The notes under the pieces were generated by a model. It saw nothing but the letters and a program-made list of their open reading frames with translations, did no database searches and was not told where the DNA came from. Below, piece after piece: positions 22,407 to 55,524 of a DNA stretch of 64,000 nt. Source of the DNA: a virus (lineage: Duplodnaviria > Caudoviricetes); IMG/VR virus record IMGVR_UViG_3300025011_000016. One strand, given 5' to 3'. Positions within the stretch are counted from its first letter, which is position 1, and the number at the start of each line of letters is the position of its first letter. The translations under genes were made by a program, and so were the position numbers.

Positions 22407-22791
22407 TTATCCACCATGATGAATATCGTCATAAACATCACCTGGAATTGTCAATATTTCATCAGGCATAATATCAGTAACAGCTATTAAATCATCACCG
22501 ACTAATTGACAATTTGGATTTTGATCATATTGAATATGCAAACCTAAATAATTTACCCAATGATTTACATATAAGGGACTTACTATTTCACCAGAATTTA
22601 TTTTTTTACTAGTATAGAATGTCATTTTCCCATCTTCATCCCATTTACTATATATTGAATTCGGAAGTGATTCTACACCAACACCTTCTTTGATAGGTTC
22701 CCATGGTTTATTAGTATAAATTTCTTGCAATTTTCTTTTTAATTCAATTAAGACTTTATTGCCAAACATGGTTAATAGAATACTAGGAGTC
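22407..22791 (-). CDS. rpoB: RNAP beta subunit exon 7 (C-terminus with SET-like extension)
   Basis: Completes AT|G and continues TPSILLTMFGNKVLIELKRKLQEIY, in frame with the ORF 22407..22769. Confidence 0.8.
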
Positions 22792-23068
22792 CAATAATGT
22801 TAATAATATTCGTTAAATATTATAAAGGATAAAATCCTTTCTCTATCTTTCAATAGAAGTTCAGACTATTTCATCATCTCATTAGAGATGCTTCTTATTT
22901 TGATTCACACTTGTAAATCTAAGAACTCTACCGTTCTAGTCGTTGAACCTTATTCTTTTGTAAGAATATTGGCTGCGGATTGTCCAATCTATATTAGTAA
23001 AGCCCTAAGAAGTTTCCCGCAATTAAAGAAGTTTGCATTATATATCACTATACAATGGGACGAATTCC
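22792..23068 (-). ncRNA. Group I intron 6 (277 nt, no ORF)
   Basis: 5' exon ends in U with P1 aggau/guccc. Contains aauccgcagcc, guucaacgacuag and gaaauagucu core elements and ends in G. Confidence 0.88.
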
Positions 23069-23202
23069 ATCCTCGCTAAAATTGAGCCCGGTGCTATGGT
23101 GGAACTTATTTCTTCATTAGGCCGAGATAAGGCGTATGGTTCAAAACCTTCCTCGACCACCTCCCCTATGATAGACTTGAGAGCGGTGAAATAGACAATC
23201 TT
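23069..23202 (-). CDS. rpoB: RNAP beta subunit exon 6 (134 nt)
   Basis: KIVYFTALKSIIGEVVEEGFEPY...GSILAR. Joins GD|K upstream and RM|T downstream. Confidence 0.85.
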
Positions 23203-24422
23203 CTTTATATTCATACATGTCCATAAGCATGTATAAGTTCACATATGGAACTTCCCTAAGTTTCCTTAGGATACTAGACTATATCTTCATCTCTTAATAA
23301 GGTAATTACTTCTTAGATAGAGATGCTTCTTATTTCGATTTAAGGGGATTTCACCCACCCATTTAGGCCCTACTCCTATTGTGTATTTCAACACTAAAGG
23401 ATAGTCGTTGAACGATATGTTGTAAGACATTCTTTATATATACCTTTATATAATTTACCCTGGTTTAATTTTTTTAACATATTTTTTAATTTTTTTGAAT
23501 CATAATCAAATTTAGGTAATATATCTTTTATACGTATACCTTGAATCAACATATTACTCATCTCAATAATATCTTCTTTACTATAAGTTTTATAATATAT
23601 TTTATCATTATCCCATACATACAAATCACTTATAGCTCTCCAACTTTTTCTATGTTTAATTTCAGATAACATAGATAATATATTCGGTCTATCTTCCCAA
23701 TGAAATATATTAATTATTTTTGTTAAACTATATCCCAATACAAAGTATTTACATATTTGATGTACTTCATCGTTTGTAAAGAATGCTTTAAAGTGTCTGT
23801 CACAATTCTCATAAAGGTTATTCTTAGCGGCGTGTGCCTTATTTTCATTAGCAGTCACCCATTCTAAATTATCAACCCTATTATTTAATTTATTACCATC
23901 TATATGATTAGCCTCTAACTCTTCTATAATATTATTGGGTAATGGATTAAAATGGATCAATACCAAACGTTGAACTGAAAATTTTTTGTACTTCTTATTA
24001 TCTACCTCTAAAGCAACACGACAATATCCTTTTTCATTACCGGGGTTATTAAATCCTAATATTTTATTTCGTTCAATGTTCTTTACCCTACCATGATCAC
24101 TAATCATATACTTAGGTTTGATATTTTTATACACTATATCTTTCCATTGCTCATGGTCAGTTACAATATTTATAAATAATTTCATAGAAACACCTCTTTA
24201 ATTTTTATATTAGATATACGTTTAGCCATATATTATTAGTTATTTTTCTTACAACACATTCGCTGCGGATCATCCAATCTTTATCATTATTACTTATACT
24301 AGGTTAATTACTCCCAGTCATTAATATAAAATTAATTAGTAGATAGAGCAATAAGGATATCCCCGCAATTAAAGAAGTTTTTTACTAATATATCACTATA
24401 CTAGGGAGACAAACTGTATGTA
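23203..24422 (-). mobile_element. Group I intron 5 (1,220 nt) with homing endonuclease
   Basis: P1 ggagau/gucucc, core elements, terminal G at 23203. The stem arms 23415-23427 and 24247-24259 enclose the HNH ORF. Confidence 0.9.
23394..24185 (-). CDS. NUMOD4-HNH homing endonuclease
   Basis: WKDI...YMISDHGRVKN (NUMOD4) and NHIDGNKLNN...NLEWVT..EN..H (HNH). The stop codon lies in the intron core. Confidence 0.88.
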   Translation of the reverse strand: MKLFINIVTDHEQWKDIVYKNIKPKYMISDHGRVKNIERNKILGFNNPGNEKGYCRVALEVDNKKYKKFSVQRLVLIHFNPLPNNIIEELEANHIDGNKLNNRVDNLEWVTANENKAHAAKNNLYENCDRHFKAFFTNDEVHQICKYFVLGYSLTKIINIFHWEDRPNILSMLSEIKHRKSWRAISDLYVWDNDKIYYKTYSKEDIIEMSNMLIQGIRIKDILPKFDYDSKKLKNMLKKLNQGKLYKGIYKECLTTYRSTTIL

Positions 24423-25148
24423 ATCTCCAATCCCGAGCACGTCATTATACTTAATATAAAATTCAAATAAAACTCCTTGGTCCACTACAGTACCTTTAAC
24501 TTTACCATCCTTAGATTCGATTTTTTTAGTGGGTTCGTTCATCATAATGCCACATTTATATATAGAATCCCCTTTATCATATTTATTGAGAACATTTTTC
24601 TTCTTATTTATTCTAGTATAATAATCAGATACAATTTTTCTCAATGAGGGACTTAACTCTTCTAGTTCAACCGTAGTGTAGATCTTGATATCTACAATCT
24701 CACCAGAATACTTAGTTTTAATAGGCGTTTTCCCTAATGATTTAATATCTTCTCGTAATTCCTTACCAATAGAATCTAAAAATTTATTTAATGAGTTGTC
24801 ATCAAAAGAAACTTCGAACCGGATAAGTTCATCTGAAACTTGAACTTTCTGCCCTATCTCAACCATATAGTCAACATTCGCATTTAAACCTAGAGCAACA
24901 GTTTTTTCCATAACAATGTCTGCCGCCATTTCTCTACCCAATTTCTTTGTTATAAAAGCAGAATCTTCAAAGGTAGAATATGTTGATAAACATGCAACTT
25001 TTTGTAATGATCCAATATTAAATCTATTACCAGTTATTTTACTATCAGTAAAGAATTTACTATCCGATGCAAGTATATCTTTTTGTTTAAATTTTTGACC
25101 TTTAACTAGATTACATGTTAATTTATTTGATAGATAGAAACCCCCAGC
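24423..25148 (-). CDS. rpoB: RNAP beta subunit exon 5 (726 nt)
   Basis: AGGFYLSNKL...YSTFEDSAFIT...TKYSGEIVDIKIY...VLGIGD. Matches beta-subunit regions (ED and GDK motifs). Confidence 0.88.
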
Positions 25149-25329
25149 CATTATATTCATATAGATTATAAACCTATACAGTTCTCAAATGAACTTCCCT
25201 AATGTTAATTAGGATACTAGACTATATCTTCATCTTATAAAGATGATCCCTATTTCGATATATAAATATATCTACGAGTTCTCACTCTAGTCGTTGAACC
25301 TGTCTTATAGTAATATAGAAGATTATAAG

Positions 25330-25340
25330 TATATATTATA
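25330..25340 (+). promoter_or_regulatory. Early promoter motif TATATATTATA inside intron 4
   Basis: Exact match to the motif upstream of the early operons. Confidence 0.6.
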
Positions 25341-25377
25341 TTAATAGATAATAAAATAAAGGAGCCAAATAATTACT

Positions 25378-25440
25378 ATGTTCCACGTTATTATATTCTT
25401 TATGTTGCTTCGTATTCTCAGTCGTTTAGGTAAAAAATAA
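25378..25440 (+). CDS. 20-aa peptide MFHVIIFFMLLRILSRLGKK inside intron 4, antisense
   Basis: RBS aaaggag upstream. Hydrophobic segment with a basic tail. Too short to be sure it is translated. Confidence 0.35.
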   Translation: MFHVIIFFMLLRILSRLGKK

Positions 25441-25457
25441 TTAGGGAGTGTTTTACT

Positions 25458-25823
25458 ATGATTACACCAAAGGATATTTTAATGAACTTAATTCAAACTG
25501 CACAAGACGATGAATTATTTCAAGAAAATGCCATTGAGTTAACCAACAGATTTTTCTATAATCGATTTCTTAGTGTCTTAAAACAATATAACGGTGATGA
25601 GGCTAAGGCATATGACGCCTTCATCGTAAAAAAGAATCTATATCTCTTCAATTTATATATTGAGGAGTTCATTGATTTACAGCGTTCCACTTATCAATCT
25701 ATGTATCCATCACAATGGACTGAGAATCCATATAATATGGTTTTACGTAAAGAACTCAGACAGATTCATCATTATCTATGTGCCGACCCAAGAATACTTG
25801 ACATGCCATCATATCACGGATAA
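25458..25823 (+). CDS. Unknown 121-aa protein inside intron 4, antisense
   Basis: RBS agggag. No HNH, GIY-YIG or LAGLIDADG motif seen. Confidence 0.7.
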   Translation: MITPKDILMNLIQTAQDDELFQENAIELTNRFFYNRFLSVLKQYNGDEAKAYDAFIVKKNLYLFNLYIEEFIDLQRSTYQSMYPSQWTENPYNMVLRKELRQIHHYLCADPRILDMPSYHG

Positions 25824-25983
25824 TCTATTAATACTATATGGGTGATTTTATATCACCTCTCTTTTTTTACTATAAGACTTGGCTGCGGATTGTCCAATCT
25901 TTATTATATAAAGCTCTAAGGAGTTTCCCGACAATTAAAGGATATTCTTTATACATTCACACATATAAAGGGCATTTTAGTTT

Positions 25984-26215
25984 ACCATTTTTAACTACTT
26001 TAGTTGAAGTATCAATAGCTTGTATAGAATTGTCTTTATATCTAATAATAGTTAAACCATTAGCATCATTAACTTCTTCTACAATACCATCTTGTTTCGC
26101 CACAATAACGAAGTCATTTGATAAATGATATTGAATAACTTGTTCCGCACCATTAGATATTAAAACAGGTGATGATTTTACAATAGGTATGATATGCTTC
26201 GATTGTTTACTGGCC
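25984..26215 (-). CDS. rpoB: RNAP beta subunit exon 4 (232 nt)
   Basis: (M)ASKQSKHIIPIVKSSPVLISNGAE...FVIVAKQDGIV...VVKNG. Confidence 0.88.
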
Positions 26216-26503
26216 CTTTCATGCACATGAGTTATTAGCACATGCAGTTCTCTTACGAACTTCCCTAACTTTCATTAGGATAATAGACTATATCTTCGTC
26301 CTTTATTTTTTTTATATAAAGGAGTTTCTTATTTCGATACATAAAGTATCTACGAGTTCACACTCTAGTCGTTGAACCTTCCTCTTATAAAGAGACTTGG
26401 CTGCGGATTGTCCAATCTTTATCTTATAAAGCTCTAAGGAGTTTCCCGTCAATTAAAGAAATGACTTTAAATATATTACTATACTTATGCGACAGTATTA
26501 TTC
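26216..26503 (-). ncRNA. Group I intron 3 (288 nt, no ORF)
   Basis: Perfect P1 ugcgau/gucgca, core elements, terminal G at 26216. Confidence 0.9.
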
Positions 26504-26523
26504 ATCGCAGTTCTTGTACTATC
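26504..26523 (-). CDS. rpoB: RNAP beta subunit exon 3 (20-nt micro-exon)
   Basis: gat agt aca aga act gcg at = DSTRTA(M), restoring RD-DSTRTAM-ASKQ. Confidence 0.85.
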
Positions 26524-27298
26524 CGTAACCATTCATGTTTCCATAAATGACAGACTATATCTTCATCTACATAGTTACATGTTTAGATGTCCTCCATTTC
26601 GGCTTATAAATAAACCTACGAGTTTACACTCTAGTCGTTGAACCTTTCTCTATAAAAAATAGTAATATCATACTCTGAATTTATATATCATATACTTGAA
26701 TATAATAAAATAATGGAGTTGAATTGATATGATATGATAATAAATGATATCCATAATATAACAGACTTCGATCAGTATATAGAATTCTATACTCAATTAA
26801 CTAATACATATGGTAAACTAAATCATTATATCTCCAAAATATTTGAAAGGCGTGGAAATATCAGTATTGACCATCTACCAATTAAATCACATAAACTTAA
26901 ACTCGGTACTCTTTTATATCATGTATCCGAAACTAAATATGATTTTTTAAAATCATCATTTAAAAGTAGAGATGAATTTTTATACTCTGAAAATAGAATA
27001 TATTTTACTACAGACATCGAATCATTAGAGCCACATTTTAAAAAGTATCGATATGTCTATATGTATGTAGTTACAGGTAATGAAAATACATTTATCGACT
27101 ATGAGTATAATAATAACAAATCATTCTATATATCTAATGATAAACCATTTGAAATTAAAGAGGTTCAACTTCTTTAATTTTTTTATAGAGACTTGGCTGC
27201 GGATTGCCCAATCTTTATATTATAAAGCTCTAAGGGGTTCCCCGACAATTAAAAGGATTCTTATTATGTATTTCTACATAAAGGGACAATAGTAATTT
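26524..27298 (-). ncRNA. Group I intron 2 (775 nt) carrying an antisense cargo gene
   Basis: P1 gggau/guccc, core elements, terminal G at 26524. A perfect 13-bp stem (26647-26659 / 27179-27191) encloses a + strand ORF. Confidence 0.88.
26734..27177 (+). CDS. 147-aa protein inside intron 2, antisense, possible ADP-ribosyltransferase-like fold
   Basis: RBS tggag and promoter-like tatatatcata at 26682-26692. LYHVS...RIYFTTD pattern. No homing-nuclease motif. Confidence 0.65.
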   Translation: MIINDIHNITDFDQYIEFYTQLTNTYGKLNHYISKIFERRGNISIDHLPIKSHKLKLGTLLYHVSETKYDFLKSSFKSRDEFLYSENRIYFTTDIESLEPHFKKYRYVYMYVVTGNENTFIDYEYNNNKSFYISNDKPFEIKEVQLL

Positions 27299-27582
27299 AT
27301 CCCGTGTTACACCCAATGGTGATAATAATTCAGCAGGAGAAAATAAATTTGAATCTTTTAATTTATCCAATTGATCATTCTTTATGTCAATATAACCCCT
27401 CGGACTAACTATATTAGGTTCTAATGTTAACTGTCTAACGATACCACAGTTTGCGTCGGGTGACGTTGATATTGCTATAATACCTAACATAGTTTCATCA
27501 TACGCTCTCTTATCTTGGGTATAAGCGTTATCTTCGTTCATCCCACTAAATCCCTTTTGGGATATCACACGACCTTTTTCCA
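27299..27582 (-). CDS. rpoB: RNAP beta subunit exon 2 (284 nt)
   Basis: (L)EKGRVISQKGFSGMN...DKRAYD...STSPDANCGIVRQLT...ELLSPLGVTRD. Confidence 0.88.
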
Positions 27583-40107: not shown

Positions 40108-41925
40108 ATGGCACAACTAAAAATATTAAACCCCTCCCTCGAACCTTTGGCGATACTACTTAACGTAGTGTCGCCTTCTGTTTCCGAAGAAATAAACCGC
40201 GAGTTCACGGCATCGTTTCAAACCATTATCGACGGCGACAAAAGCGACTACATCACCTATCAAAACATCGTCGAAATTGAAGGTAACTATTTTAACATCG
40301 TCTACACGAAAGACAACCACAACCCCGACGGCACACTGACAATCGACGGTGAGTGTGAGCATGTGAGTTATGATCTAATCGGCGACGAAAACGACCCGGC
40401 AGACCCTATGATACATGAGTATTACGCAAATGTTGGCACCCCTACAGCGTTACTGACAACGTTGCTTTCCGGCACAGGCTTTACGGTAGGACAAGTTGAT
40501 TTTACTGCGCTGACAACTATCGCGATTAACGAAAAGGTTAACAAGCGGGGAATACTCATAACGCTGGCTGAACAGTTAGGCGGGGAACTAAAGTTCGACA
40601 AGTACGAAATATCCCTATTGTCGCGCAGGGGAGCGGATCGTGGGCTAGGATTTAGGTATCGTCGAAATCTAGCTAGTATGTCGCGGATCACAGACAACCG
40701 TAACAAGGTTGATGGATTGCCTACCGTGACATACACCACGGATGTTGTCGAATTGGAGTTCGCTGAAGGGCATGGGACTGACGATCATTACGAGTTGGGG
40801 GATACAGTTTATCTATTTGACGACCAGTTAGGCATTGCAAATGTGCCACTTAGAATTATCAAGGAGTCTCACAACCCTCAGCAACGTATGCAGGGAAACG
40901 TGACTATATCAAATCTCTCGGACGCATTCGTAAAGGATATACATGACACGGTGGCTGGGTTGCAACAGAGTACAGTGTATAAGGGAGCGTTGTACAACGG
41001 GGTAAGGATAAGTGCATACGATGGGTTCGTGGCGACTAGGACGGACAATAAAGTCAGGACGACACTCAATGCAACGAATGGAATTTCGGTACAAAGTGGC
41101 GATGGTTTAGGTACGTGGGTAGACAGGTTTTACGTCGATATTGACGGCAACACTCGCCTGAAAAATGCTTTTATTGACATAACTAGTGGTGACACATATA
41201 TCCTGATTAGCCCGACTGAGGGGATCAGGATTACAAAGGATAGTGTCGATAAGTTTTCCTTAGACACCAATGGCAATGTGCAGCTAAAAGACGCATCAAT
41301 CAACATAACCAGTGATGGCACAAACATAATTATTAGCCCGGTCGAAGGGATTAAAATTACCAAGGACAGCGTCGATAAGTTCTATGTCGATGTCAATGGA
41401 AATCTAACCTTTGACGGCAAGATGATGGTAACTGACTCAGGGAATACTTTGGCGGAAATATTCAAGGATACTAACGGAGGGATTCTAAATCTCTATGATT
41501 TGTCAGGAAACCTGAATGTAAAGATCGGAGTAGAATCAGGAGTTGCAGGGAATACAGGGGGAACGCTGGTCTTGTTTAAGGATGTTCCTCCCGGATCTGA
41601 TCCAATCAATTTTAGAAGGGTAGAACTTGGCATTAGCAGTACGTTTGACTGTGGGGCTGCAAACTTTAGAGACACAAGCAACAAGGTTAGGGCTAGTATT
41701 CAAGCCGACTCTTCCGCTGGCCCGTATATCGGGATAAGGGATTCCGCAGAAGTAATGAAGAGTTATATTTCCGAGTTTTTTGGCAAAATAGACAACGAAT
41801 TAATTGCAACTAGGCCTTGGGTAGATATCCAAATAGCCGCCTACGACCTGGTTATAAAGGAATGGGTTGTAGAGCAAATAGCGGCTGTAATATTTACACA
41901 CATTGAGGAATTCCACACACCATAA
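40108..41925 (+). CDS. Siphovirus tail protein (prophage tail / Tal-like)
   Basis: GELKFDKYEISLLSRRGAD.G..FRYRRNL and YELGDTVYLFD..LGI...RIIKESHNP. Lies just before the lysis genes. Confidence 0.8.
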   Translation: MAQLKILNPSLEPLAILLNVVSPSVSEEINREFTASFQTIIDGDKSDYITYQNIVEIEGNYFNIVYTKDNHNPDGTLTIDGECEHVSYDLIGDENDPADPMIHEYYANVGTPTALLTTLLSGTGFTVGQVDFTALTTIAINEKVNKRGILITLAEQLGGELKFDKYEISLLSRRGADRGLGFRYRRNLASMSRITDNRNKVDGLPTVTYTTDVVELEFAEGHGTDDHYELGDTVYLFDDQLGIANVPLRIIKESHNPQQRMQGNVTISNLSDAFVKDIHDTVAGLQQSTVYKGALYNGVRISAYDGFVATRTDNKVRTTLNATNGISVQSGDGLGTWVDRFYVDIDGNTRLKNAFIDITSGDTYILISPTEGIRITKDSVDKFSLDTNGNVQLKDASINITSDGTNIIISPVEGIKITKDSVDKFYVDVNGNLTFDGKMMVTDSGNTLAEIFKDTNGGILNLYDLSGNLNVKIGVESGVAGNTGGTLVLFKDVPPGSDPINFRRVELGISSTFDCGAANFRDTSNKVRASIQADSSAGPYIGIRDSAEVMKSYISEFFGKIDNELIATRPWVDIQIAAYDLVIKEWVVEQIAAVIFTHIEEFHTP

Positions 41926-42244: not shown

Positions 42245-42913
42245 TTGCCTAAGGTATACATTAGTCCAAGTACGCAGGAAATGAACCGAGGAGTATCGCC
42301 GTTTGGTACTGAAGAAGCGGAAACGAACAAGATTGCGGATGTGCTTATTCAGCTATTGAGCAACGATGGGAGATTTCAAGTAAAACGTAATTCTACAGCT
42401 ATGGACCCTTACCAATGTGCTGAAGACTCTAACAACTTCGGGGCTGATATTCATGTCGCAATCCATAGCAACGCCGGGGGCGGAGAGGGGACGGAGGTTT
42501 TTGCCTATGGTGCAGGTTCAAACTCAGACCGATTAGCCAAGTGTCTTTACAGCAAGGTTGCGCCTCTTAGCCCGGGAAATGACCGAGGAGTGAAGTTTAA
42601 CCCCAAGCTAATCGAGGTAGGAAACAGTGTCAACGCCACGTCCTGCTTAATCGAGCTGGCATTTCACGATGAAGCTAACGATGCAAGATGGTTGGTTAAC
42701 GGGCGAGATTCAATTGCTATGGCTCTCTACCATGGGATTTGTGACTATTTTAGTTATGATTACATGGAGATTAAAGAAGCGTCTGAGGTTAAAAAAACCA
42801 TTGCGCCTGACGATATTTACATAAGCGTAAGGGCGCAAAAACACTTGGCAGATCAGGCGATAAAGGATATTAACAAGCTGGGGTTTGCTGCCAAGATTCT
42901 TGAGTTGGCATAA
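42245..42913 (+). CDS. N-acetylmuramoyl-L-alanine amidase (Amidase_3) endolysin
   Basis: KVYISPS, E.E.N, ADIHVAIHSNAGGG.GTEV and LIELAFHD. Confidence 0.88.
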   Translation: MPKVYISPSTQEMNRGVSPFGTEEAETNKIADVLIQLLSNDGRFQVKRNSTAMDPYQCAEDSNNFGADIHVAIHSNAGGGEGTEVFAYGAGSNSDRLAKCLYSKVAPLSPGNDRGVKFNPKLIEVGNSVNATSCLIELAFHDEANDARWLVNGRDSIAMALYHGICDYFSYDYMEIKEASEVKKTIAPDDIYISVRAQKHLADQAIKDINKLGFAAKILELA

Positions 42914-48409: not shown

Positions 48410-48742
48410 ATGACATTTTTGCAAAAAAGTATTAAAAAAGTGATGTTATGTAATCGTTTCGTCAAGGAGGGGAAGGCAATAGAAAAAGCATTAGTAAGTG
48501 AGTTCAAGCGATTAACAGGTTTTAACGGTGGCGATATTGCTAAAAAGTATGGAGTTAGTCGGCAGTTTGTTCATCAGGAGTTAAGTAGTAACACGTTGAC
48601 GCATAAGGCTAGTTCGGCTTTCTTCTTAAATGCAATGATTAACGAAAAGGTTTTAGAACTAAAAAAGCAGGTTCGGGATTTGGAGTTTTTGCAGCTCAGT
48701 ATTGAGGGCAGCGTAACGAATGGGGAGGACAAGCATGAGTAA
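48410..48742 (+). CDS. HTH-containing protein
   Basis: GGDIAKKYGVSRQFVHQEL. Confidence 0.6.
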   Translation: MTFLQKSIKKVMLCNRFVKEGKAIEKALVSEFKRLTGFNGGDIAKKYGVSRQFVHQELSSNTLTHKASSAFFLNAMINEKVLELKKQVRDLEFLQLSIEGSVTNGEDKHE

Positions 48743-49409
48743 TTTAACAACCATTCAAGTCGAAGTTGATCTTGGGGTAAACCCTCACGATGGAGCGGCA
48801 AAGGTTAGCACAAGGTTTATAGCTGATGTGTTCAACAAGGAACATAAGGATGTGTTGGAATCAGTTAGGAATTGTAATTGCAGTAATGAATTCTCGCGGC
48901 GGAATTTTACGCCGTCAACCTACAAGGATTCAAGAGGAAAGAAGCAACCTGAAGTCCTGCTCACGAAAGACGGATTCGCTTTTATTGTAATGGGTTTCAC
49001 TGGCAAAAAGGCTGCTCAATTTAAAGAAGCATATATCAACCGATTTAACGAAATGGAAAAAACCTTAAAAGACCTTAACATCGCAAGGCTCGAATACCCC
49101 GAACTTACGGAAGCAATCAAATCCATGCACGCAGAACCGAAGTTCTTCCATTACTCAAATGAGGCAGACATGTTCAATCAAATTATTTTAGGCATGAAGT
49201 CGAAAGAATTTCGCAGGAAGCACAACCTTGATAAAGGTGATTCAATCAGACCATACCTAACTCCATTTCAAGCCGAGGCAATGAGGAAAATGCAACAGTT
49301 CGACGTAGGCTTAGTTGTGGCCGTTCCTGATTTCGCCGAGCGCAAGAAGATTCTGCGAACCTATTTTATGCAAACTTATTTTCCTGAGACGTTGAAGTTA
49401 AATTCTTAA
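48735..49409 (+). CDS. rha: Rha-family phage regulatory protein
   Basis: VSTRFIADVFNKEHKDVL...Y.D..GKKQPEVLLTKDGFAFIVMGFTGKKAAQFKEAYINRFNEME. Confidence 0.9.
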   Translation: MSNLTTIQVEVDLGVNPHDGAAKVSTRFIADVFNKEHKDVLESVRNCNCSNEFSRRNFTPSTYKDSRGKKQPEVLLTKDGFAFIVMGFTGKKAAQFKEAYINRFNEMEKTLKDLNIARLEYPELTEAIKSMHAEPKFFHYSNEADMFNQIILGMKSKEFRRKHNLDKGDSIRPYLTPFQAEAMRKMQQFDVGLVVAVPDFAERKKILRTYFMQTYFPETLKLNS

Positions 49410-54639: not shown

Positions 54640-55524
54640 ATGGCTAACATAGTCGTAAAAAACCCAACAGTAGCCCAATACCTGGGATCAGTGGACATAA
54701 AGCGGTACATTGAAGGAGTCCTGAAAGAGCGTGCAGGGCAGTTCGTGACCTCGTTAGTGTCAATGTCAAAACTTACCCCTGCGTTAAGCGGTTGTGACCC
54801 TGAAACACTTATGTATTGCGGCCTGAAGGCGGCTAGTCTAAGCCTTCCGTTAGATAACAACCTTGGGTTCGCTTATGCGGTTCCCTACAAGAACAACAAG
54901 ACTGAACCTCCAACTATTGAGGCGCAATTCCAAATTGGTTATAAGGGATTCATTCAGCTTGGGCAGAGGACCGGTCAGTACAAAAGTATGAACGTTATCA
55001 ATATCCATAAAGGCGAGTTGATAAGCTGGGACCCATTCACGGAAGAACTTGAACTGGAAATTGTAAGCGACCAAGAAGCACGTTCTCTCCTTCCGGTCAT
55101 TGGATATGCTGCTGTTTTTATACTAACGAACGGGTTCAAAAAAGTCAGCTATTGGCCTACGGCAAGGGTTGAATCCCATGCCAAAAGATTCTCGAAGGCT
55201 TTTCATAAAGGACCTTGGCAAACAGACTTCCATGCAATGGCAAGAAAGACGGTCCTAAAGGATATGTTGAGCCATTGGGGGCCTGCTTCTACGGAGATAT
55301 CAGAGGCCGCAAAGTTTGATCAATCTGTTGTTCGTAAAACAGAGGCTGGGGAAGAATACCCAGATTACGTGGATGGTTCACTGGTTGAGGATGTTCCAAA
55401 CTTGCCAGAATCAAGCATCGAAGCTGAATTCAAGGCTGAGCAGGAGCGCAAAAAAGCGTTCGACGCCGAAGAGAGTCGGAGATTGGATGCAGAGTTGGCG
55501 GAGAGGGAGAATGCTGGTGCTTAA
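54640..55524 (+). CDS. recT: RecT-family single-strand annealing protein
   Basis: LGFAYAVPY...AQFQIGYKGFIQLGQRTGQY and W..DF.AMARKTV. Confidence 0.92.
   Translation: MANIVVKNPTVAQYLGSVDIKRYIEGVLKERAGQFVTSLVSMSKLTPALSGCDPETLMYCGLKAASLSLPLDNNLGFAYAVPYKNNKTEPPTIEAQFQIGYKGFIQLGQRTGQYKSMNVINIHKGELISWDPFTEELELEIVSDQEARSLLPVIGYAAVFILTNGFKKVSYWPTARVESHAKRFSKAFHKGPWQTDFHAMARKTVLKDMLSHWGPASTEISEAAKFDQSVVRKTEAGEEYPDYVDGSLVEDVPNLPESSIEAEFKAEQERKKAFDAEESRRLDAELAERENAGA

Follow-up and report, generated by a model that had tools for sequence, protein, structure and literature searches.

The stretch of DNA analysed here (the window, 64,000 nucleotides in length) carries on its minus strand the gene for a beta-like subunit of a jumbo-phage virion RNA polymerase (RNAP), which is divided by six introns into seven exons, the third of them a micro-exon of 20 nt (Table 1). 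When the long upstream frame of this gene was used in tblastn, 205 phage records were matched, the best of them, about 30% identical, being from AR9/PBS1-type Bacillus phages, Staphylococcus jumbo phages and Listeria phage LPJP1, with E-values of 2e-73 to 4e-72 for g189 of AR9. Homology to jumbo-phage beta subunits and, as described below, to cellular beta places the product in the RNAP beta family, whose genes in jumbo phages have been stated in print to be often interrupted by introns. A Pfam search of the single exons found nothing, megablast with the 8 kb that cover the gene matched none of 50,697 phage records, and an IMG/VR search with the end of exon 1 retrieved a relative of 26% identity and nothing closer.

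The splice junctions were placed by three rules, namely that the 5′ exon ends in a U paired to a G of the guide, that the intron ends in G, and that the product can be aligned colinearly with homologues whose genes are uninterrupted. The resulting seven-exon model is a single open frame of 4,431 nt with a TTG start at 30515 preceded by GGAG, and its sole stop codon is the terminal one; every 5′ exon has U as its final base and every intron has G, and across each of the six junctions the product aligns without a gap to phiR1-37 g099 and its LPJP1 counterpart, both of them uninterrupted.

Table 1. Coordinates of the features discussed in the text (positions in the window)
Feature	Coordinates	Strand	Basis	Remarks
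Whole gene, virion RNAP beta-like	22407..30515	-	splice model and homology	
Exon 1	30515-27866	-	splice model	
Intron 1	27865-27583	-	group I	
Exon 2	27299..27582	-	splice model	284 nt; last residues GVTRD; final base U27299
Intron 2	26524..27298	-	group I	775 nt; last base G26524
Intron 2 internal guide	27283..27293	-	P1 and P10 pairing	ACUAUU-GUCCC
Exon 3 (micro-exon)	26504..26523	-	frame and homologues	20 nt, gatagtacaagaactgcgat; D S T R T A and two bases of a Met codon
Intron 3	26216..26503	-	group I	288 nt; no ORF; last base G26216
Intron 3 internal guide	26488..26493	-	P1 pairing	GUCGCA
Exon 4	25984..26215	-	splice model and contig L008	232 nt; first base g (26215) finishes the Met codon, then ASKQSKHIIP
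Intron 4	25983-25149	-	group I	
Exon 5	25148-24423	-	splice model	
Intron 5	24422-23203	-	group I	contains HNH ORF 24185-23394
Exon 6	23202-23069	-	splice model	
Intron 6	23068-22792	-	group I	
Exon 7	22791-22407	-	splice model	
Tail endopeptidase	40108-41925			
Amidase	42245-42913			
Rha	48720-49409			
RecT	54640-55524			
PDDEXK DUF3799	55316-56329			

The Rfam group I model RF00028, with its gathering threshold of 50 bits, returned three full-length hits on the minus strand (27875-27629, 26513-26263 and 23094-22841), and at a relaxed threshold pairs of half-hits appeared for three more introns, which bear large inserts. Intron 3 corresponds to the second of the full-length hits, which covers the whole model (1-253) at 82.8 bits (E 1.5e-19) and so exceeds the threshold. 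Intron 2 is represented by half-hits at 27304-27146 and 26701-26531 of 28.7 and 30.3 bits; it falls below the threshold, and in halves, because of the 553-nt insert between them, and its orthologue at the same site on the metagenome contig L008, which lacks the insert and is 360 nt long as against 775 nt, scores 59.5 bits.

The 20-mer of exon 3 falls where the 3′ half-hit of intron 2 gives way to the full hit of intron 3. The string that the first-pass annotation had quoted reads as the reverse complement of 26504-26523, which puts the exon on the minus strand; the string is found once in the window, in none of 100 dinucleotide-preserving shuffles even with three mismatches allowed, and an exact search of IMG/VR gave 0 matches. 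In the model the protein segment spanning the micro-exon is TRDDSTRTAMASK, and the spliced product reads ...ELLSPLGVTRD/DSTRTA(M)/ASKQSKHIIP..., such that the site of intron 2 is between two Asp codons and that of intron 3 is inside a Met codon. The introns that Rfam places on both sides, the frame and the homologues bear out the earlier proposal of a 20-nt exon between introns 2 and 3 that encodes DSTRTA(M), the DxxRxxM motif of the beta subunit, and the alignment to beta supports the latter part as well; the proposal that skipping the exon would shift the frame also holds, in that a modelled join of exon 2 to exon 4 runs into a stop three codons on. Overall, it is clear that the 20-nt micro-exon between two group I introns is real. 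A product that retains intron 3 was also considered and was rejected, the modelled frame meeting a stop after six codons.

The link to cellular polymerases comes by way of LPJP1, a segment of which matches residues 673-823 of bacterial beta (E 2e-5), with its HADPPRISM opposite HDDANRALM at beta residues 673-681. The arginine encoded by the micro-exon is by this alignment the equivalent of R678 in Escherichia coli beta, a residue shown in a recent structural study to make a hydrogen bond to the gamma-phosphate of the incoming NTP, and termed universally conserved there (PMC13198411). The D-x-x-R-x-x-M motif is present in the product only when the micro-exon is spliced in, and the label of a core RNAP motif is justified.

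The homologues compared for their intron state were P0001-P0120, which include 110 full-length and uninterrupted genes (55–74% identity in exon 5, many on contigs of 200–300 kb), and the IMG/VR loci L014-L021, eight relatives that were found by way of P0123. The R and the M encoded by the micro-exon are each present in 110 of the 110, the D is retained in 102 and replaced by E in 8, the Asp at the end of exon 2 is invariant, and no gap occurs within four residues of the stretch in any of them; the nearest uninterrupted orthologues read SPLGVTRDDSIRTAMATKQSKHII and are colinear residue for residue. The gene is likewise uninterrupted at all eight IMG/VR loci, which yielded no further micro-exon. 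The six-intron state is thus exceptional in the clade, in which the 110 full-length homologues and these eight loci are free of introns.

The most informative relative is contig L008 (85% identity in exon 5), where the positions of introns 2 and 4 are occupied by introns and those of introns 3 and 5 are empty. All 20 bases of the micro-exon are identical in L008 and run straight into the homologue of exon 4 (gatagtacaagaactgcgat-g-agctctaaacag), and this fused junction without intron 3 shows that intron 3 of the window sits exactly at gcgat/g. Intron 2 of L008 has the same 5′ site (cacgggat/aaa), the same 3′ site (...g/gatagtac) and the same P10 partner, ACUAUU, as that of the window. A more distant relative (L009:1-190, 47% identity) begins within a group I intron that has its 3′ site at the same at/g of the Met codon, so intron 3 occupies a site that has served for insertion in two lineages or more. 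The ORFs of P0123 and P0125 begin exactly at MATKQSKH, and in these an intron may lie at or beside the same site.

A separate observation concerns a 36-nt block without mismatch between the window and L008, made up of 15 nt from the 3′ end of exon 2, the whole micro-exon and the first nucleotide of exon 4 (window 27313-27299, 26523-26504 and 26215; L008:29-43 and 404-424). No longer identical run occurs in the 1,021 nt of exon compared at 81% identity, where about 0.1 such blocks would be expected, and it stops exactly at the site of intron 3, past which the codons diverge immediately (gcc agt versus agc tct). The block may reflect a constraint from RNA pairing or the boundary of a recombination event.

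Judged by their sequences, introns 2 and 3 are both of an IA-like type with predicted P7.1/P7.2 hairpins, and they are members of one family: their P7, Q and R elements are identical and their halves are 78% and 62% identical, while the guide and P3 differ. Intron 2 and its L008 orthologue (26524-26560; L008:370-403) have just 7 nt from P9 to the terminal G and lack the tail of about 45 nt with P9.1/P9.2 hairpins that introns 1, 3, 4, 5 and 6 possess. Since the short tail is common to the intron of L008, its loss is old and tolerated and predates intron 3 in the lineage. Between the window and L008, P3 of intron 2 has undergone a compensatory change (UCCU/AGGA versus UUCU/AGAA), and the changes in P9 preserve pairing. 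Both ribozymes are probably active, and inclusion of the micro-exon is the likely main outcome. The 553-nt insert, which occupies the P6 loop of intron 2, holds a plus-strand ORF (26734-27177); this ORF and another in the P6 loop of intron 4 (25458-25823) have good ribosome-binding sites, and neither has a hit in Pfam or PHROG or any similarity to the intron ORFs of AR9 and BpSp.

It had further been claimed that the exon must supply both the 3′ splice-site context of intron 2 and the P1 strand of intron 3 (ugcgau), and the P10 and P1 pairings agree with this. Intron 2 starts with AAAUU-ACUAUU-GUCCC, in which GUCCC can pair as a P1 guide with GGGAU at the end of exon 2, and the adjacent ACUAUU can pair as P10 with nucleotides 1-6 of the micro-exon, GAUAGU, in six of six positions, the best P10 of the six introns. 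The guide of intron 3 matches UGCGAU, nucleotides 15-20 of the micro-exon, likewise in six of six positions and with a U.G pair at the splice site. A group I P1 and a terminal G are thus found for intron 2 (G26524) and intron 3 (G26216) alike. P10 of intron 3 is not convincing, with two of six pairs at the canonical position and, besides, an offset AGUA/UACU. The splice-site helices use 12 of the 20 bases of the micro-exon, six at each end with 8 nt between them, and one short exon serves the 3′ site upstream and P1 downstream, an arrangement of the type seen in Twort orf142. A local minimum-energy fold of 161 nt recovered the P1 hairpin of intron 3; it is uninformative on the long-range P10.

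The folding analysis also contains a competing helix of 7 bp, formed between nucleotides 1-7 of the micro-exon, GAUAGUA (26517-26523), and nucleotides 7-13 of intron 3, UACUGUC (26491-26497). This helix overlaps the guide of intron 3, and its U.G pair at exon nucleotide 3 would set a cryptic 5′ site there. It is possibly a product of chance, and elsewhere the matrix contains a non-cognate match that is just as strong.

The explanation that we favour, and as a whole regard as very probable, is that two related self-splicing group I introns have come to be inserted 20 nt apart within D-D-x-x-R-x-x-M and that each would find its own splice sites by means of its own internal guide. Intron 2 would hold the end of exon 2 through GUCCC (P1) and the start of the micro-exon through ACUAUU (P10), and intron 3 would hold the last six bases of the micro-exon through GUCGCA (P1). 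The two introns would then be removed independently, and exon 2, the micro-exon and exon 4 would be joined into ...TRD-DSTRTAM-ASKQSKH..., in which the arginine equivalent to R678 is restored.

A first alternative is the suggestion of the first-pass annotation that a single 20-nt exon serving both ribozymes forces an order of splicing. The folded cores may clash sterically with only 8 nt between the P10 and P1 segments, and the competing helix would block P10 of intron 2 and P1 of intron 3 until it was resolved. The pairing segments are, however, separate, and since they do not overlap, nothing in principle keeps either intron from being the first to react; in the local ensemble the canonical P1 prevails with a share of 0.86 against 0.11 for the competing helix, which appears in 0.6–3.4% of shuffled exons and is within chance; and the identical 20-mer is present in L008, which has no intron 3. 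Tandem introns around exons of 23–34 nt, both natural and engineered, do splice, with inclusion and skipping both observed and no obligatory order stated (PMC10136302), and phage AR9 appears to cope with an exon of as little as 11 nt. The idea of a forced order was therefore not borne out, and we consider it unlikely.

A second alternative is that a sizeable share of the transcripts skips the exon or uses the cryptic 5′ site, giving a truncated and frameshifted product that would be either waste or a brake on the polymerase. Two routes to skipping have been described, one by a hybrid ribozyme that combines the 5′ part of the first intron with the 3′ part of the second, and the other by use of the distal 5′ site by the second intron (PMC10136302). 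Skipping is documented for the 34-nt exon of the Coxiella burnetii 23S rRNA gene and for the 23-nt exon of Twort orf142, which is sometimes skipped as shown by RT-PCR (Landthaler and Shub 1999, as related in PMC10136302), and a figure of 47% has been reported in a polymerase gene of the Bastillevirinae (PMC10136302, PMC11878797). The membership of introns 2 and 3 in one family with identical P7, Q and R speaks for the same outcome. The differences in guide and P3 should, on the other hand, disfavour the hybrid ribozyme: a hybrid P3 made from the 5′ strand of intron 2 and the 3′ strand of intron 3 is worth only -0.4 kcal/mol, as against -5.6 and -3.2 kcal/mol for the cognate helices. Differentiated splice-site recognition elements were moreover found to favour inclusion in the engineering study (PMC10136302), and skipping would destroy an essential enzyme. 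Substantial skipping is, in our judgement, quite improbable.

It can also be envisioned that the micro-exon acts as a splicing checkpoint, in which the competing helix would couple the two ribozymes such that intron 3 has to be removed first or the share of cryptic-site or skipped products is tunable. If this were true, full-length beta would be made under the control of RNA folding late in infection, but we regard such a role as very doubtful.

Two further readings can be dealt with briefly, and to both we give next to no credence. An exon of 26 nt, beginning at 26529 after an intron 2 that ends at G26530, would also be preceded by G, in frame and free of stops, but its extra Val-Thr occurs in none of the 110 homologues and the six-of-six P10, which is aligned only with a start at 26523, would be lost; the 20-nt model predicts ...cgggat/gttacggatagt... 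at the junction of exon 2 and the micro-exon. That the gene is decaying, with one or both introns dead for splicing and the exon never expressed, might be read from the missing P9.1/P9.2 tail and foreign cargo of intron 2 and from the absence of any nuclease encoded by introns 2 and 3, but seven open exons colinear with orthologues, the compensatory change in P3, the age of the short tail, the 16 contigs, the longest of 248.6 kb, that carry the exon-4 ORF, and the established need of such jumbo phages for the virion polymerase in early transcription (PMC7598289) all contradict it.

A tiny exon between two group I introns has several counterparts among known systems. As described in the source cited above, orf142 of phage Twort resembles the window in that a protein-coding phage gene is split by several group I introns, two similar ones of which (in Twort highly similar and of subgroup IA2) flank a short exon, and differs in being a tail-tube gene with three introns, whereas the window has an RNAP gene with six. 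The window is in turn unlike Twort in that its exon has 20 nt and encodes an active-centre motif, that the neighbouring introns have differentiated guides and P3, and that the case is read from the sequence. The 34-nt exon of the C. burnetii 23S rRNA gene and the 24-nt exon of engineered tandem Tetrahymena introns also lie between two group I introns and, as in the window, carry the 3′ site of the upstream intron and the 5′ site of the downstream one; unlike the window, the former is in an rRNA gene and the latter in an artificial reporter, and the introns belong to other subgroups (PMC10136302).

Closer in kind are the homologous genes of other jumbo phages. Bacillus phage AR9 g189 (KU878088), a late gene, is 30% identical to that of the window and encodes the beta-like N-terminal part; its CDS is annotated as six joined pieces separated by five RF00028 introns, one of which contains an HNH gene, and the mature mRNAs of AR9 are reported to have been determined experimentally. 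Between its introns 2 and 3 is an 11-nt exon, aaagttggggt (L001:9089-9099, coordinates inferred from sequence), which agrees with the annotation in six pieces; unlike that of the window it is located in the SPDS-KVG-VRQL region, some 50 codons further upstream, and the AR9 intron near the motif follows ...TQQKH. Two other phages have a short exon that can be read at this motif of the gene: in Staphylococcus jumbo phage LY01 (OR836606; L002:9784-9807) it has 24 nt and encodes SPRIGMTG, and in Bacillus phage BpSp (KT895374; L003:8317-8349) it has 33 nt and encodes RIGMQSTQQKH, with insertion sites 1–10 codons away from those of the window. The LY01 introns are smaller than those of the window and have no Rfam hit at E<0.01, and phage PB50 represents a natural allele of the LY01 locus without the second intron.

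Given that tiny exons are known in Twort and Coxiella and can be read in AR9, LY01 and BpSp, the case of the window joins a known kind, and it reveals no new kind of mechanism. What is particular to the window is that an active-centre motif is split on both sides and that six related introns are found in a clade in which 110 homologues and eight IMG/VR loci have none. The 20-nt exon stands as a clean, orthologue-validated case of an exon that gene callers miss, and a polymerase without it would lack the arginine that holds the incoming nucleotide, so annotations of such phages are in error if tiny exons are not looked for. The public records of LY01 and BpSp omit their short exons likewise, and list the pieces of the gene as separate hypothetical proteins. 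The window and its intron-3-free relative form a natural pair for the study of how tandem ribozymes avoid exon skipping, and the same pair should be useful for asking how introns pile up at conserved sites.

A final observation concerns the window as a whole, whose record may be chimeric, concatenated or mosaic. The GC content is 44% over 38000-64000 as against 30% in the jumbo-phage part, with the step near 38–40 kb, and the genes of the GC-richer part are of temperate-siphovirus type (Table 1).
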